A DNA stretch of 45,690 nt. Source: Candidatus Hodarchaeota archaeon (lineage in GTDB: Archaea; Asgardarchaeota; Heimdallarchaeia; Hodarchaeales; Hodarchaeaceae). A program made the translations under genes and the position numbers. The stretch covers positions 1-45,690 of the forward strand of contig JAHQWW010000023.1 of assembly GCA_029856365.1 (NCBI GenBank), written 5' to 3'. Under the pieces are notes generated by a model. That model ran no database searches and was not told the DNA's origin. It was given only the letters and a program-made list of their open reading frames with translations. This document shows positions 9,564 to 18,282 of the stretch, piece after piece; within the stretch, counting starts at the first letter, position 1, and the number at the start of each line of letters is the position of its first letter.

Positions 9564-12500
9564 ATGCTTATTGAGTCACTTGCTTTAGATGATCGAATTA
9601 AAAGAGTAATTATCGAGAAAGATGGAATCAAAGAACTTTATCCTCCCCAGATAGAGGCTATTAACCAAGGATTATTGACAGGAAAAAACTTTGTTATCTC
9701 CATTCCCACAGCTGCAGGCAAAACATTACTTGCGGAAATGGCAGCTTTAAAGCATGTGATTGAACTTGGTGGAAAAGCCATTTATTTGTGTCCATTACGA
9801 GCGTTAGCATCAGAAAAATTTAATGATCTGAAACGGTTTGAAAATCTAGGAATTCGCGTAGCCATTACTTCTGGTGACTATGATTCCACTGATAGCTATC
9901 TTCCTAGATATGATATTATTGTTTCAACCAATGAAAAAATGGATGCACTTCTACGTCATCAAGTAAGCTGGATAAAGGATCAGGTCAGTCTTGTTATCAT
10001 TGATGAATGTCATTTATTAAATGATCAGCATCGTGGACCTACATTAGAAACTCTAATAGCCCGATTATTGATCGAAAATTCTCACTCTCAAATTATTGCT
10101 TTGAGTGCCACTATCGGAAATGCAGATGAACTGGCTGAATGGTTGAATGCAGAATTAGTTCAAAGCGTTTGGAGACCAGTCCCTTTAAAGGAAGGGGTTT
10201 TCTTTGAGGATCAAATAACTTATTCTGATTTCTCCTCTCGAGAAATACCCTTTCGCCGTAAAGATCAATTGCTTAATATCGCACTCGATTCAGTTCACTC
10301 CCAAGAACAAGTACTCATTTTTAATCCGTCAAGAAGGTCAGCAGTTGCTACAGCAGAAAGAATTGGTAAAAGTATTGAATCACTGATTGAACCAAGAGAA
10401 GCAAAACACTTAAATGACCTTTCCTCTCAAATTGTCCTTAATCTTTCTGACCCTCTTTCTTCAAAGTTAGCTGAAACTATTAAACGCGGAGTCACCTTCC
10501 ATCATGCAGGACTCAATACACGACAACGAGATTTAGTTGAAAAAGCATTCAAAAAAGGATTAATCAAGGTTCTCTGCGCCACACCTACGCTTTCATCTGG
10601 GGTCAATCTTCCTGCGAAGCGTGTTGTCGTTTCTAGTGTTTATAGATACTCAATCGAAGAGGGATCCCATCCTATCAAGACCTTAGAGTACAAACAAATG
10701 TGTTTAACAAAAAATTCAACTATCTTGACTCCCACATCTGATGAAAAGATTCAATCCTTAACCAAAGGTGATGTTGTAATAGGTTACTCTCCAGAAGCCC
10801 AATTAGTGCATGATGAAGTTAATGAAGTATTTGAAAGGACTGCTAAAGAACTATATACTTTAAAATCGTCTCTTGGTGTTGAATTAGTAGGAACTGCGGA
10901 GCATCCCGTTTGGACGCCTTTGGGATGGAGAAAAATATGTGAATTGAAAAATGGGGATCATATTGCTTATCTGAACAGGATAGAGAAAAGAATCAAGATA
11001 ATGCATATGCTTGACCTATTACCAAAAGAGGAAATATACGTACCTAATGCTAAATGGATTTTTGATGATGTGAAAGAGAAAACAAGTTGGGGAAAACACA
11101 AATTAGCAAAATATTTAGGAATAAACAATCCAGGGAGTCTTCATTGTTATAGAAAAGGCTTAAAAGCTACAAAATATCCTTGGATATTGAAACTGAAGGA
11201 TTTACTTAACATTAACAAACAAACGTTATATTCTAGAGTTAAAATTGTGAAAAGTAGATATGGAAATACGTTTAAAGTTGATTATTTAACACCAGAATTC
11301 ATGTGGCTTACTGGATTAACTGCAACAGATGGTAGTATAAGTGCTGTGAAGGACTCAAGAACAGGAAGCCTGACAGCTAGGATCCGTATATTCAATACTA
11401 ATCTAAAGATTCTAACAAAGGCAAAATCAATATTAGAATCATTTAATATAGATGTGGATATTAAAAAAGCACAAGCGCCTAATATCTTTTTAATTGAATT
11501 TGGTAACACCCTATTTGCAAAATTATTATTAAATTGTGGGATTTCATGGGAGAGGAAAACATATAATGTTTTTATACCAGATTTCTTTTATTCTTTGGAC
11601 AAAAAATTACTCTGGGCTTATTTTAGTGGCGTTTTTGATGGTGATGGTAATTTAACAATCCTTAAAGACTTATATCTTAATAGTGTAAGAATCTCTACAG
11701 CAAGTAAGGAATTTGCTATTGGTCTGCATAAACTTCTTTTGCATCTTGGAATTTTAAGTAAGATAACGACCCGATCCATTGATAATAAGACGATTTTACA
11801 TGGAAAAGAAGTACATTTCAAGGCAAAGAATTATATTGTGATTTTTAGGAAGAAGAAGGATTTAATTAAATTTAAAGAAAACGGATCGATTACTAAATGT
11901 GAAATCCCCGAAATAAAATACTCAAACTATCATAATGTCTACAAAAGAGGAGAGACAAAACTTCCTTTTGATTTTATAAAGATAAAAGAAATAAAGAGGA
12001 TTGATAAGAGAATTAAAGTCTATAACATCCAAACTAAAAAAACAAACACATTTTTTGCAAATAACTTCTTAGTTCACAATTGTGGCCGAGCCGGTCGGCC
12101 TCAATTTGACAACGAGGGAGAATCATTATTGTTAGCCAAGCAGCCAAGAGCAGTAAGTTGGTTGATGGATCGCTATATTCTCCGTGATCCAGAAGCTGTG
12201 TACTCAAAATTAGCTTCTAAACCTGCGTTACGTAGATCTATCCTAGGATTAATTGCATCAAAAGTGGTTAGTACTATCCCTGATTTATTATATTTTTTTG
12301 AAAAGACTTTCTACGGTTTTCAATTTGAGGCAGTATTCTTGGAGGGAAAAATCAGGGAGGTTGTTGATCTTTTTATAGTATGGGAAATGATTAGGCCTCT
12401 TGATGCAAATGAAACTCTCGAAGCTACCCTTTATGGTCGTCGTGTTAGTCAGCTCTATTTGGATCCCGAAACCGCAGCAACTATAGTAGAAGGCCTTAAC

Positions 12501-13172
12501 GGAGCTATTCAACAGTCTCGATCAAAAATTCATCCCGTAGCACTGCTTGACCTAATAGTTGGTACCCCTGACATGGTTACATTGTCATTTCGTAAGAGTG
12601 ACTGGAAAACAACAGAGAAAAGATTTGAACGATTCACTTCTAGACTGGTACGAGACGTTCCAGAAGCACACGAGATTGAATATGAGTTTCGTTTGCGTGA
12701 TTTCCGGACAGTTCTTTTCTTATGGGATTGGATAAAAGAATTACCAGTTGAACGAATCATTATGCGGTATAAAATTGGCTCAGGTGACGTTCAGCGAATA
12801 GTGGAAACAGCCACTTGGCTGGTATCTGCAACAGTTGAAATTGCTCATTTAAAGACAAGAAGTAATAAGAAATATCACATCCTAATGAAAGCTGCTCAAT
12901 CTCTAAGTGATAGAGTAAAGTATGGGATCAAAAGCGACGCGGTTAGTCTTACCAGAATTAAAGGAATTGGACGAAAAAGGGCTCGCATTTTGTTAGACCA
13001 TGGGATTCGTGATATAACCAAGTTATTAAACCTCACTGATACCGAATTGAGTCAGTTTCCAGGTTTTGGACCAGAATTGGCAAAAACCACTTTGAAATTA
13101 GCAAAGGAATTAATAGAACCAACTAAGAATGGAAGTAGTCCTGATGTTGGTTTAGAAGACTATATCTTTTAA
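9564..13172 (+). CDS. hel308: Hel308/Ski2-like SF2 DNA helicase precursor with one intein (742 aa after splicing)
   Basis: LYPPQ, PTAAGKT, PLRALASEK, IIDECH, LSAT, WRPVPL, FHHAGL, ATPTLSSGVNLPA, QM|CGRAGRP, C-terminal HhH GIGRKRAR. Confidence 0.95.
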   Translation: MLIESLALDDRIKRVIIEKDGIKELYPPQIEAINQGLLTGKNFVISIPTAAGKTLLAEMAALKHVIELGGKAIYLCPLRALASEKFNDLKRFENLGIRVAITSGDYDSTDSYLPRYDIIVSTNEKMDALLRHQVSWIKDQVSLVIIDECHLLNDQHRGPTLETLIARLLIENSHSQIIALSATIGNADELAEWLNAELVQSVWRPVPLKEGVFFEDQITYSDFSSREIPFRRKDQLLNIALDSVHSQEQVLIFNPSRRSAVATAERIGKSIESLIEPREAKHLNDLSSQIVLNLSDPLSSKLAETIKRGVTFHHAGLNTRQRDLVEKAFKKGLIKVLCATPTLSSGVNLPAKRVVVSSVYRYSIEEGSHPIKTLEYKQMCLTKNSTILTPTSDEKIQSLTKGDVVIGYSPEAQLVHDEVNEVFERTAKELYTLKSSLGVELVGTAEHPVWTPLGWRKICELKNGDHIAYLNRIEKRIKIMHMLDLLPKEEIYVPNAKWIFDDVKEKTSWGKHKLAKYLGINNPGSLHCYRKGLKATKYPWILKLKDLLNINKQTLYSRVKIVKSRYGNTFKVDYLTPEFMWLTGLTATDGSISAVKDSRTGSLTARIRIFNTNLKILTKAKSILESFNIDVDIKKAQAPNIFLIEFGNTLFAKLLLNCGISWERKTYNVFIPDFFYSLDKKLLWAYFSGVFDGDGNLTILKDLYLNSVRISTASKEFAIGLHKLLLHLGILSKITTRSIDNKTILHGKEVHFKAKNYIVIFRKKKDLIKFKENGSITKCEIPEIKYSNYHNVYKRGETKLPFDFIKIKEIKRIDKRIKVYNIQTKKTNTFFANNFLVHNCGRAGRPQFDNEGESLLLAKQPRAVSWLMDRYILRDPEAVYSKLASKPALRRSILGLIASKVVSTIPDLLYFFEKTFYGFQFEAVFLEGKIREVVDLFIVWEMIRPLDANETLEATLYGRRVSQLYLDPETAATIVEGLNGAIQQSRSKIHPVALLDLIVGTPDMVTLSFRKSDWKTTEKRFERFTSRLVRDVPEAHEIEYEFRLRDFRTVLFLWDWIKELPVERIIMRYKIGSGDVQRIVETATWLVSATVEIAHLKTRSNKKYHILMKAAQSLSDRVKYGIKSDAVSLTRIKGIGRKRARILLDHGIRDITKLLNLTDTELSQFPGFGPELAKTTLKLAKELIEPTKNGSSPDVGLEDYIF
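10701..12080 (+). mobile_element. Intein in Hel308 motif VI (460 aa) with LAGLIDADG endonuclease
   Basis: EYKQM|CLTKNSTI...GTAEHPV...VYNIQT...FLVHN|CGRAGRP; LTGLTATDG and FSGVFDGDG. Confidence 0.95.
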
Positions 13173-15274: not shown

Positions 15275-15525
15275 TTGTATTCTAATTTCCTTCGCATACC
15301 AAGAACTTTTTTATCTAAATACGATTCTATTAAACTGAGTGTATTGACAAAGACAAAAAGAAGGATCCTGATAAATTCGAACGGATGTTTGCTGCCCAAT
15401 ATCTTGCTAAATACAATTATTTAAAGAGTAAAAAGCATTTACAGAGAGCTATTATAGAGGATACTGATCCAGAAGTAGTTCATTGCATTCGTAAACTACT
15501 TGAAGATAGAGAAGTTATTTCTTAA
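15275..15525 (+). pseudogene. Probable remnant of a HEAT-repeat (PBS-lyase-like) gene, or a 46-aa small ORF from ATG 15385
   Basis: Frame ending TAA 15523-15525 reads KKDPDKFERMFAAQYLAKYNYLKSKKHLQRAIIEDTDPEVVHCIRKLLEDREVIS (two HEAT-like units). An in-frame stop lies at 15331-15333, and the upstream part (FLSKYDSIKL) is in another frame. Confidence 0.45.
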
Positions 15526-15558: not shown

Positions 15559-16386
15559 TTACGAGAAATATTCTTTCAGATTTTCCCGAATATGAGAAAA
15601 TCTTTTGATTCCAAAACGCCATTGAAGTCTAAAACTTAACCATCTTTCAGGGATTCCTAGGAATAATTTTTTTTGTAGTTGCCTGAGTACGGAGAGATCT
15701 GAAATAGAGTTTGATATTGCTTGAATAGAAGGAAATTCAGATTCCTTTAGTTGAAATTGTTCGATTGGCTGTGAATGGGGTAATTCTTCAGATAAAAAAA
15801 CTAAAGAATATTTCTTCAAAGTTTTTTTATGATTAGGAGAAACCATTGTCTGGAAAGAAAATAACGGATTCAACGGGGGAGGTATTACACGATCAAGAGT
15901 TCCAAACATTTGAATAAGGTTCATTGGATCTATTTTATGTTGGCTTGTCAATTGGAGTTGCTTCTTACAGAAAATTAGTTCGATTAATTTTGAAGAAATA
16001 GGATAAGGATCCAGTGTTTCAAAATCGTTCAATGTTAGAATGTTATTATCTTCTATATTCATAGACCCATTTATTAATGGTGAGATAAAATATTGGACTG
16101 TTTTCTCATTATAAAAGGAATTATCAATGATTAATGTATGAGTTTTTATTGATTGACGTCCAAAGCGGTCAATTCCATCATCAAAAGTAAAGCGTAAGAC
16201 AACATTTCCAGAAGAATGTTGAAATTTAGTCAAGAAGACTTTATTAAAATCACAGCATTCTTCCTCTGGAATAAATAAAGAGATATTTTGGATTTGGCTT
16301 TGGTGTAATGTGGTAGCTACGACATCGAGTCCCATTTCAGGAGTGTTTCGAACAATTACTTGACGAATTTTCCCCATTCCAGTCAA
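15559..16386 (-). CDS. Hypothetical protein resembling GAP1-N2 + GAP1-M (DENN-like) domains
   Basis: QVIVRN..GLDVVATT; GNVVLRFTFDDGIDRFGRQSIKTHTLII; LIELIF..LQL..IPPPLNPLFSFQT; 14 bp downstream of a GTPase gene. Family call by eye. Confidence 0.6.
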   Translation of the reverse strand: MTGMGKIRQVIVRNTPEMGLDVVATTLHQSQIQNISLFIPEEECCDFNKVFLTKFQHSSGNVVLRFTFDDGIDRFGRQSIKTHTLIIDNSFYNEKTVQYFISPLINGSMNIEDNNILTLNDFETLDPYPISSKLIELIFCKKQLQLTSQHKIDPMNLIQMFGTLDRVIPPPLNPLFSFQTMVSPNHKKTLKKYSLVFLSEELPHSQPIEQFQLKESEFPSIQAISNSISDLSVLRQLQKKLFLGIPERWLSFRLQWRFGIKRFSHIRENLKEYFS

Positions 16387-16400
16387 TTTCCAGCAAATTA

Positions 16401-17027
16401 CTAATACAGGGATTGTTTACATTTTTCAAAAATTGCGTCAATGTCCTCGTAAGGGGATTTATGAACACTAATGAATGCTTCTGCAAATTTAGCGAAAGGA
16501 AAAGTCATTTTGTAGTCTTGAATAACAATATCAAAATCATCTAGAAAAGCACGTGCTTTCTTTTCATCATTATTAATAGTATCCATCTTGTTGATAACAA
16601 AATAGAAGAGCGTTTTCTTTTTTCTTGCTTTTTTATCAGCTTTATCAGGATCTAAGCTTAAACTATCAAGAAAATAGTTAAAAGAATCTTCCATTGCCAC
16701 TCTCTGGCTTTCAACTCCCTGGATAGGATCTAACATAAATAGGATTCCATCAGTCTTGTATTTTCTCATCGCTTCACGCCACTTACGGCGTAGTTTAAAA
16801 TCACCAGGATTATCTACTGCTATCACATTATACTTTCGATATCGTTCAAAGGACAATCTTGATTGTTTACTACTCGACAATAAAGTTATTTTCTTTCTCT
16901 CAACAGTGATATCTAAAGTTCTTTCTGTCGAAGCAGGGTCTTCTCCTTTCAAACGTTTAATTAGACTGGTTTTTCCAACACCAGTATGACCAAGGATTGT
17001 CAGTCGAATGTCTCTATCTAATACCAT
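16401..17027 (-). CDS. Divergent TRAFAC small GTPase (ATG 17027 preferred over GTG 17042)
   Basis: G1 GHTGVGKT, G2 ERT, G3 DNPGD, DGILFMLDPIQ, G4 NKMD, G5-like ISVH. Confidence 0.88.
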   Translation of the reverse strand: MVLDRDIRLTILGHTGVGKTSLIKRLKGEDPASTERTLDITVERKKITLLSSSKQSRLSFERYRKYNVIAVDNPGDFKLRRKWREAMRKYKTDGILFMLDPIQGVESQRVAMEDSFNYFLDSLSLDPDKADKKARKKKTLFYFVINKMDTINNDEKKARAFLDDFDIVIQDYKMTFPFAKFAEAFISVHKSPYEDIDAIFEKCKQSLY

Positions 17028-17687
17028 AATTAAATTTCCCACATAATTTTCTCACCCTTGCGAGAAGCAACACAGGAGATGAAGTTTCATCAAAAAGAAT
17101 AGGTTTAATGAGTGGTTTATAAGAATAACTTTTCAGTAAGCTACCTCTGGATTGGCTGCAACTAGTTAAAGAACTCTTATCGATATGCAACTTGAGCATC
17201 TTTGTTTCACCACTGAACCTACCGAACACCAAGAAGAAAGTATAGAAATGGTCATTTGCACAGCAAGACGATTATAGACATAATATTACAGTATTAGACA
17301 ATCACATCTGGTTATCCGAAATATAGAGAATTTTTTTCACAGTAAAAGATCATATTCGGCCATAAAAAACATGGATCTTTTTTTTCTCATTGCTTTAAGT
17401 TAAGATACGGCTGACTGAAGTTAAACTATTTAAGCTCGAATTTACTGAAACTTAAACAATCTTCCAAAGAAAGTATTTACAATAAAAAGAATTATTGTAA
17501 TTTTTAGGCATATATAAAAAACATAGGTGTCTTTTCGTGACAAAAATTGTATCGAATCCTCATGTATATTTGTTTAGCTGGTTTTTCTACAAAAAAATAC
17601 TTTTAGGGAACTTACCCCTATTTTCTTCATGAACATACCTAACTTCACCCAGTCTTAAGGATTTTTGATATTGTGAGGCAAAGGTTC

Positions 17688-17729
17688 AATTCGAATTTCT
17701 CGCAAAAAAATTCGAAATTCTCGCAAAAA
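17688..17729. repeat. Tandem 21-bp direct repeat (1 mismatch), candidate transcription-factor site
   Basis: AATTCGAATTTCTCGCAAAAA (17688-17708) followed by AATTCGAAATTCTCGCAAAAA (17709-17729). Confidence 0.85.
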
Positions 17730-17730
17730 T

Positions 17731-17746
17731 AAAAACCTTAATAAAT
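17731..17746 (+). promoter_or_regulatory. Putative BRE/TATA promoter of the 17863 gene
   Basis: AAAAACCTTAATAAAT: A-rich BRE-like tract plus TATA-like TTAATAAA, next to the tandem repeat; GGAGG RBS before ATG 17863. Confidence 0.45.
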
Positions 17747-17862
17747 GCATAGCAATCCAAATTGTTTGTAAATGAGATTTGCTAATCTTAGCGGCTCAAA
17801 ACATAAGAAACCCCTTCAAATCAAAATGAAAATTAGAATAATTAGCGGAGGATATTAGATAA

Positions 17863-18282
17863 ATGTCTGCTGTTACAATCGCAAAAATGATTCAGCTTCA
17901 AGAGTCAAAACCGATTTCCCTTCCTGCTGACTTTCTTGAAACCTTACGCCCCAAGGATGTTGAAGAAAGTTCTGCTGTAATGATCCTTGCTCCTTCGACA
18001 AAAATCATTCGGATTATTCCCACTAAAAGTCCTGAAGTTGTTAAAGTTGCTATAGAAATCGGTGAGCTATCACCTGACTTTTTGCAAGAGTTAGGTGTTG
18101 TCTTTATGAGAAGTAAAATAAAGACCCTTTACAGCACAGGACTGTGTTTCACTCAAGATAGTTGTACCTATGAAGGTTACTTAGACTCCAGTGACTTGAC
18201 AATCTCACAAGAACAGCTGAAAGATGAGCTGGCGGAAATTAAAGGCGTAAGTAAGGTAGATATAACTACCCTTGTAGCTTAA
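17863..18282 (+). CDS. AbrB-like N-terminus plus ACT-like domain protein
   Basis: PISLPADFLETL resembles a swapped-hairpin motif; VVKVAIEIGELSPDFLQELGVVF...LKDELAEIKGVSKVDI fits an ACT beta-alpha-beta-beta-alpha-beta pattern; good RBS. Confidence 0.6.
   Translation: MSAVTIAKMIQLQESKPISLPADFLETLRPKDVEESSAVMILAPSTKIIRIIPTKSPEVVKVAIEIGELSPDFLQELGVVFMRSKIKTLYSTGLCFTQDSCTYEGYLDSSDLTISQEQLKDELAEIKGVSKVDITTLVA

Follow-up and report, generated by a model that had tools for sequence, protein, structure and literature searches.

A GTPase gene and its GAP1-like, longin-DENN-fold neighbor: a candidate switch-regulator pair in a Hodarchaeales archaeon

Introduction

Eukaryotic membrane traffic and nutrient signaling involve Rab, Arf, and Rag GTPases under the control of longin-DENN proteins, whose origin is an open question of eukaryogenesis. 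Among the Asgard orders, Hodarchaeales is the one placed nearest to eukaryotes. We analyzed positions 1–45,690 of contig JAHQWW010000023.1 (assembly GCA_029856365.1) of Candidatus Hodarchaeota archaeon, hereafter the window, which contains on its minus strand the gene of a small GTPase followed by the gene of a 272-aa protein, hereafter the partner. The question raised by this locus is what the partner is and what it does to the GTPase. A first-pass annotation had seen here a GAP1-N2/GAP1-M and DENN-like protein next to a companion GTPase of the bacterial conflict systems. The evidence presented below supports the partner as a remote homologue of the GAP1-N and GAP1-M domains, built on a longin-DENN fold, and makes us lean, with modest confidence, toward a cognate pair of a switch and its regulator.

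The gene pair

The open reading frame (ORF) listing of the window contains two minus-strand genes 14 nt apart at their longest starts and a long gap upstream of them, just as the first-pass annotation had described, and each of the motifs quoted in it (DNPGD, DGILFMLDPIQ, GNVVLRFTFDDGIDRFGRQSIKTHTLII, and PLFSFQT) was found in the sequence. The longest GTPase ORF occupies positions 16401–17042 (213 aa from GTG), and the longest partner ORF occupies 15559–16386 (275 aa from TTG). Homologues of both proteins begin at internal ATGs, and the likely genes are therefore 16401–17027 for the GTPase (208 aa, ATG at 17027, product beginning with MVLDRD) and 15559–16377 for the partner (272 aa, ATG at 16377, product beginning with MGKIRQ). 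The spacer between them (16378–16400) is 23 nt long counted from the ATG of the partner and 14 nt from its TTG. This short distance implies that the partner gene, located downstream, would be co-transcribed with the GTPase gene; equally tight spacing was found in the related loci L001–L004, L005, and L006. Both ORFs are real genes, since they have numerous homologues (67 for the partner at E ≤ 0.01 and 128 for the GTPase at E ≤ 0.001) and confident structure predictions. Judging by their names, the homologues of both proteins belong to Asgard archaea (Hodarchaeales/Heimdallarchaeia).

Fold and relationships of the partner protein

No match to the partner was found in Pfam, NCBIfam, or PADLOC. 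Its 67 homologues share 47%–99% identity and, where named, are all of the Hodarch/Heimdall type. An exhaustive profile search brought together 31 representatives of the family, including distant relatives of 250–330 aa, and only Q6, G16, R74, P100, and P166 were invariant in this widened alignment. The family signature is DDGxDxFGRxxIKTHxL. Only one copy of the family was found in the genome, which is 84% complete.

The structure was modeled with AlphaFold2 on a 272-aa cluster representative (P0003) 99% identical to the window protein, with a mean predicted local distance difference test score (pLDDT) of 91.3 and a predicted template-modeling score (pTM) of 0.90. In the model, a longin-like N-terminal lobe is followed by a DENN-type alpha/beta lobe. 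The first, GAP1-N-like domain (residues 1–123, positions 16009–16377 of the minus strand) holds Q6, G16, and R74; G16 (codon at 16330–16332) is located just before strand beta2, and R74 (codon at 16156–16158) lies in the beta4-beta5 loop. The second domain with the C-terminal helices, DENN-core/GAP1-M-like (residues 124–272, positions 15562–16008, minus strand), carries the motifs DRxIPP and FSFQT. The top Foldseek matches in the PDB were DENND1B in complex with Rab35 (E 1.2e-6), DENND1A, folliculin, DENND10, C9orf72-SMCR8, and the longin domain of Lst4, with sequence identity to the DENN-type structures of 8%–11%. The DENN-like character ascribed to the partner in the first-pass annotation was thus borne out by the predicted fold. 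Profile searches of PDB sequences with the partner family returned nothing relevant, and a genome search with PF02141 gave a weak match at another locus and none at the partner gene.

About 25 of the 67 partner orthologues (e.g., L002:6001–6996 and L003:6001–6978) carry an additional KOW domain of some 55 residues at the C-terminus, which may point to a connection with ribosomes or with transcription. The window partner has neither KOW nor another adaptor domain.

The relationship to GAP1 was found by structure and by profile comparison. A search of the ESM Atlas by structure showed that all named neighbors of the partner carry GAP1-N1, GAP1-N2, or GAP1-M (template-modeling scores 0.62–0.75 over 229–260 residues), and a search by language-model features gave the same families with scores of 0.94–0.95. 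One of 33 partner family members matched GAP1-M (E 0.015). A 903-aa Asgard protein matched both the partner family and, weakly and in the right order, GAP1-N2 followed by GAP1-M. No bacterial GAP1 protein was among the matches when the widened alignment was used in a word-indexed search. Scanning of 399 Asgard genomes with the widened profile revealed weak matches in other families, which led to conserved operons in families f22 and f24 (L042, L043, and L048–L050).

These operons consist of four genes, encoding a 180–213-aa protein, a 230-aa GTPase, a 330-aa protein, and a 472-aa protein. For the first gene, a weak Roadblock match was obtained only in the L043 copy (179 aa, E 0.024), and the L042 and L050 copies had no Pfam match. 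The GTPases match DO-GTPase1/2, and the L043 copy exceeds the DO-GTPase2 cut-off (27.9 versus 27 bits). Two of the 330-aa proteins exceed the GAP1-N2 cut-off (29.0 and 25.2 versus 24 bits), one of them scoring also 26.9 on GAP1-N1. Alignment of the window partner family (A2) with these proteins (A7) by hhalign gave a probability of 97.1% (E 6.5e-11) in an alignment of 193 columns that covers both domains, and the D-x-F-G-R...H-x-L signature is common to the partner family and the Pfam-positive GAP1-N2 proteins. Because hhalign links it to Pfam-positive proteins, the partner is supported as a remote homologue of GAP1-N and GAP1-M. The GAP1-N2/GAP1-M assignment made at first pass therefore agrees with the fold matches, both kinds of Atlas neighbors, and the hhalign result. 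Instead of the three-domain N/M/C architecture of GAP1, the model of the partner has two globular domains with terminal helices, and hmmscan found no GAP1-C match in it.

The GTPase

The product of the upstream gene is a divergent small TRAFAC GTPase with complete G1 (GHTGVGKT, 16968–16991), G3 (DNPGD, 16800–16814), and G4 (NKMD, 16581–16592) motifs. The NKxD motif identifies it as guanine-specific, a reading taken from the sequence. The position of the catalytic Gln is taken by an invariant Asp, so the protein should hydrolyze GTP poorly on its own; the G motifs and Asp76 are invariant among 37 family members. Identity across the orthologues compared is 76%–93%.

By structure, the GTPase is nearest to Arf/Sar, and it lacks the set of features that defines this group (a sequence match, an N-terminal amphipathic helix, and a catalytic Gln/His after DxxG). 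Matches to known families were weak: SRPRB in the Pfam scan and LeoA (E 0.0012) in PADLOC.

The companion GTPase implied by the first-pass annotation would be a DO-GTPase, and this part of the proposal found no support in the tests run. The hmmscan search against Pfam found no DO-GTPase match at E ≤ 10, hhalign against the Asgard DO-type GTPases gave 57% versus 71% for a Ras-family control, and the hidden Markov model of the Asgard DO-type GTPases did not pick out the gene among the ORFs of the genome. The G3 motif reads DNPGD-F, with Asp and without the Walker B Glu of DO-GTPases. In the model of the 208-aa protein, strand beta1 already begins at residue 8, and a zinc ribbon would have no space before it. 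The sole specific likeness to the DO type is the segment after switch II (GILFMLDP versus GYIFLIEP).

The genome encodes one paralogue of this GTPase, a 223-aa protein with 57% identity (contig C18, 105543–106208, minus strand). About 13 residues are inserted after its G4 motif; the gene adjoins uvrB and occurs in nearly all genomes of the genus. The neighbor of this paralogue was considered as a hidden DENN-like partner and rejected, having no Pfam or hhalign match.

Distribution and linkage of the two genes

The survey of the 399 Asgard genomes (families f1–f4 and others) showed that the two families have matching distributions. In the family of the host (f1), the partner was found in 17 and the GTPase in 20 of 21 genomes; the only genome of f3 has both, and each occurs in 27 of the 31 genomes of f4. 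Among about 345 other Asgard genomes, only one partial partner match (f2, one of two genomes) and no GTPase were found at the thresholds used. The sequence-detectable partner family is thus confined to three or four Heimdallarchaeial families, and the shared distribution of the two families reflects few independent events, as the genomes are related.

The adjacency of the genes within the genus is part of a wholly syntenic neighborhood and in itself proves little. Three far more distant partner homologues (22%–24% identity) are also directly preceded by the same GTPase family in other contexts, in L005, an ENA contig, and L006. Upstream of the L005 pair lies a Ras-family GTPase gene, and the gene immediately downstream of the pair encodes a Roadblock protein. 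Sequence change is much slower in the GTPase than in the partner: where both are encoded on one contig, the GTPase/partner identities to the window proteins are 86/72%, 90/68%, 83/52%, and 79/48%.

The linkage is not kept everywhere. In f3, about 1 kb separates the GTPase and partner genes, which are on opposite strands, and in f4 the two are unlinked. The synteny across Asgard genomes that the first-pass annotation proposed to check is therefore partial: the pairing is kept in the genus of the host, L005, the ENA contig, and L006, and the genes do not form one operon in f3 and f4. The genes downstream of the GTPase in f3 and f4 were considered as divergent partners and rejected, since they encode a receiver-domain protein and a CxxCxxCC protein. 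The unlinked partner relative of f4 is always divergently paired with a tetratricopeptide repeat protein (L021:3867–4922, L023:5748–6779).

Proposed function of the partner

The explanation that we find best, by a modest preponderance, is a cognate pair of a switch and its regulator. The partner would bind the GTPase directly and control its nucleotide cycle, likeliest as a GTPase-activating protein (GAP), with Arg74 inserted into the active site of the GTPase, as FLCN, NPRL2, and SMCR8, GAPs of the longin-domain type, do. Arg74 of the beta4-beta5 loop is predicted to stand beside the invariant Gly16 that precedes beta2; the two should be neighbors, as the beta1-beta2 and beta4-beta5 loops share an edge of the longin sheet. 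The module itself may have been inherited vertically, as a single-copy housekeeping descendant of the Asgard Roadblock/DO-GTPase/GAP1 ("DENN") operon that has shed the Roadblock gene and the fourth gene, its GTPase being no longer recognizable as a DO-GTPase.

The GAP mode is favored because Q6, G16, and R74, three of the five invariant residues, and the family signature lie in the longin domain, and because the folliculin-type protein of the same genome has a comparable layout, with GP preceding strand 2 and, some 70 residues further on, F-x-I-x-D-x-x-A-R-G. Longin GAPs have a GP motif before strand 2 and a catalytic arginine finger in the longin domain (PMC12290439). By topology and by eye, from the pattern, Arg74 may be equivalent to the arginine finger of FLCN.

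The folliculin-type protein is encoded in a cluster on contig C9 of the genome at about 51200–55000 (L041:3247–6982, minus strand), comprising genes for a Roadblock-like protein (164 aa), a zinc-ribbon protein (98 aa), the folliculin-type longin protein (443 aa), and a 461-aa protein without matches. The 443-aa protein scores 29.9 bits with Pfam Folliculin and has the GP motif and an ARG segment. This cluster is a separate, FLCN-like system and has no adjacent GTPase.

Several results weigh against the partner being a GAP1-derived, longin-type GAP that works with its neighbor. The direct Pfam search for GAP1-N2, GAP1-M, and DENN, suggested at first pass as a check, came back empty: hmmscan found no GAP1 match to the window partner at E ≤ 10, the uDENN, DENN, dDENN, and Folliculin models gave no match at the same threshold, and six-frame genome searches with GAP1-N2 (PF20013), GAP1-N1 (PF20012), and GAP1-M (PF20014) do not reach the partner gene. 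No alignment between the partner family and the folliculin-like protein of the genome was obtained with hhalign. The residue after G16 is Leu or Tyr and not Pro, so the "GP" motif of eukaryotic longin GAPs does not occur in that form. These GAPs act in eukaryotes as heterodimers of two longin-DENN proteins. The partner is not part of such a heterodimer as far as the genome (84% complete) goes, where no second subunit of the partner family was found, and the ORF list of the window contains no second longin-DENN gene beside it. The absence of a common operon in f3 and f4 shows that linkage is not obligatory. Finally, the closest whole-length solved match of the partner is a guanine-nucleotide exchange factor (GEF), DENND1A/B.

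This last result bears on another reading, which we consider rather unlikely, namely that the partner is itself a GEF working in the mode of DENND1 on Rab35, with the DENN core gripping the switch regions and opening the nucleotide pocket. The solved structures in question are the GEF domains of DENND1A/B in complex with Rab35, and the second domain of the partner has conserved motifs of its own, DRxIPP with the invariant P166 and FSFQT. Against exchange activity, the longin-DENN fold is common to GEFs and GAPs and cannot tell one from the other, and an invariant loop arginine combined with a GTPase without the catalytic Gln would be expected of a GAP pair rather than of a GEF pair. The location of Q6, G16, R74, and the DxFGR...HxL signature also fits poorly, since the longin domain of DENND1 is not known to contact the GTPase. 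A GEF role was proposed by Liu et al. for the Asgard GTPase-DENN module (bioRxiv 10.1101/2020.10.19.343400).

The partner could also be a non-catalytic effector or platform that binds one nucleotide state of the GTPase, like the SRX longin domain on SR-beta or the Roadblock/longin platforms, and couples it to another machine, for example via KOW. The KOW domain is a typical adaptor, the weak SRPRB matches of the GTPase are in line with such a role, and for GAP1 systems a coordinating role as third component, and not an enzymatic one, has been suggested for GAP1 (PMC7159879). We regard this possibility as improbable: an invariant Arg and an invariant Gly in adjacent loops look catalytic and not like a plain binding surface, and the window copy is one of those without KOW.

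Genomic neighborhood

Within the genus, the pair is flanked by genes for MCM, Hel308, a SIS protein, and endonuclease III on one side and by a 139-aa gene, a helix-turn-helix regulator, and a 420-aa coiled-coil protein on the other, and the order is the same in several species. From this gene content, the neighborhood can be described as a stable, housekeeping one. Inspection of the window and the related loci revealed no effector, FNIII, GASH, or EAD component among the neighbors of the pair, and no Roadblock gene is present in its neighborhood in the window. The divergent 139-aa gene was considered as a Roadblock protein and rejected, with no Pfam match and no similarity to a Roadblock protein. 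The "minimal, effector-less, cognate pair" of the first-pass annotation fits this neighborhood and the shared distribution of the genes.

The same data make a role of the pair in antiviral defense or conflict, as a minimal counterpart of the bacterial DO-GTPase/GAP1 systems, very improbable. Homology of the partner to GAP1 and a gene order as in the DO-GTPase/GAP1 systems speak for it. On the other side, no third component, effector, or mobile context was found among the neighbors; the GTPase is not a DO-GTPase, and its LeoA match is the only, weak, PADLOC hit of the pair. A single-copy partner in a housekeeping order shared by species, next to a GTPase as conserved as described above, does not look like a mobile defense gene that diversifies rapidly. 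The link to a bacterial-type conflict system made at first pass was therefore not retained, and a housekeeping switch and regulator is the reading that we favor.

The gap between the GTPase gene and the next gene upstream, which starts at 17863 on the opposite strand, is 820–835 nt long and contains no credible ORF. This non-coding region (17028–17862) has two genus-conserved blocks, found by blastn against related loci with 74%–84% identity, one beside the GTPase start (17032–17138) and one beside the divergent 139-aa gene (17570–17862). The latter, about 290 nt, is 71%–84% identical across species of the genus, which equals or tops the amino-acid identity of the partner in the same species. 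It contains a TATA-like stretch rich in A/T, a pair of direct repeats, GCGAGAA(T/A)TTCGAATT, whose core is palindromic, and, at 17604–17620, a hairpin with a T-run. It is probably a shared promoter/operator region. A structured RNA was considered for the conserved upstream block and rejected: there was no Rfam match and no covariation support, and the folding z-score was −1.46. The sigma-70 promoter scan is uninformative for an archaeal host.

A small plus-strand ORF (15385–15525) abuts the stop codon of the partner gene. It encodes 46 aa here and 71–84 aa in L001 and L003, with 50%–54% identity in the related loci; in the window, its N-terminus may have been shortened, or translation may begin at an unusual start. 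The Hel308/Ski2-type helicase ORF (9564–13172, plus strand) encodes 1,202 aa versus 742–747 aa in the syntenic L001–L003; the approximately 460 additional residues resemble an intein that contains a homing-endonuclease-like insert.

Comparison with known systems

DENN domains are among the eukaryotic signature proteins of Asgard archaea. Liu et al. (bioRxiv 10.1101/2020.10.19.343400; Nature 2021) predicted an operon "conserved in most Asgard archaea" that encodes a LAMTOR1-like Roadblock protein, a Rab-like GTPase distinct from Rag, and a DENN protein with a proposed GEF role. Kaur et al. (2020; PMC7159879) defined the DO-GTPase/GAP1 systems; the pair was said to have no close relatives elsewhere, and DENN and longin were not mentioned. 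The idea of an archaeal precursor of DENN regulators is already in the literature, and the pair studied here refines it and offers a handy model. It is very small (208 and 272 aa) and single-copy in the genome, which lets the choice between GAP and GEF action of an archaeal DENN-fold protein, and catalysis by the arginine, be tested.

The part that may be new is the bridge between GAP1 and DENN. Our literature search, which was incomplete, found no paper linking the two. If the sequence-level evidence from f22 and f24 holds, the proteins of the Asgard "DENN" operon belong to the GAP1 family and their GTPases are DO-GTPases, and systems so far described as two separate sets merge into a single family. 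A wider proposal, tentative and in our view doubtful, is that bacterial GAP1, Asgard "DENN," and eukaryotic longin-DENN proteins form one superfamily, that the pair is a domesticated housekeeping offshoot with an Arf/Sar-like GTPase, and that its longin arginine is of the kind ancestral to the finger of FLCN, SMCR8, and NPRL2. If this were true, the pair would be a living intermediate for the rise of eukaryotic small-GTPase regulation by DENN-type proteins.

Like the operon of Liu et al., the window has a non-Rag small GTPase gene adjacent to that of a longin-DENN-fold protein, in what was proposed to be a GTPase-regulator module, and L005 adds the Roadblock and Ras-family GTPase genes. Unlike it, the window pair has no adjacent LAMTOR1-like Roadblock gene, the partner is not seen by the Pfam DENN models, and its family occupies three or four Heimdallarchaeial families rather than "most Asgard." We infer that the partner family and the gene family of Liu et al. 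are the same.

The resemblance to the DO-GTPase/GAP1 systems (PMC7159879) lies in the regulator gene directly downstream of the GTPase gene and in the homology seen in fold, language-model features, profiles, and the D-x-F-G-R...H-x-L signature. The window pair differs from them in having a housekeeping context and in lacking GAP1-C, FNIII/GASH, an effector, mobility, and a paralogous second GTPase in the operon. The f22 and f24 operons share with the pair homologous partners, the order of GTPase followed by partner, and a GTPase much better conserved than the partner. Their GTPases have DxxGGE and TKND and match DO-GTPase1/2, whereas the window GTPase has DNPGD and NKMD and no such match, and they comprise four genes instead of two. 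These operons fit the one that Liu et al. predicted, which would then be the same thing as the DO-GTPase/GAP1 systems.

With the eukaryotic longin-DENN proteins (DENND1A/B, folliculin-FNIP, C9orf72-SMCR8, and DENND10), the partner shares the two-domain architecture of longin and DENN core; the eukaryotic proteins act on small GTPases, as the partner may do. It differs from them in being much smaller, in having no dDENN or extensions, in standing alone, and in its very low sequence identity. Set beside these systems, the module is a reduced variant of a published kind, having two genes, no Roadblock, a GTPase not recognizable as DO-type, and a KOW fusion in a sister clade.

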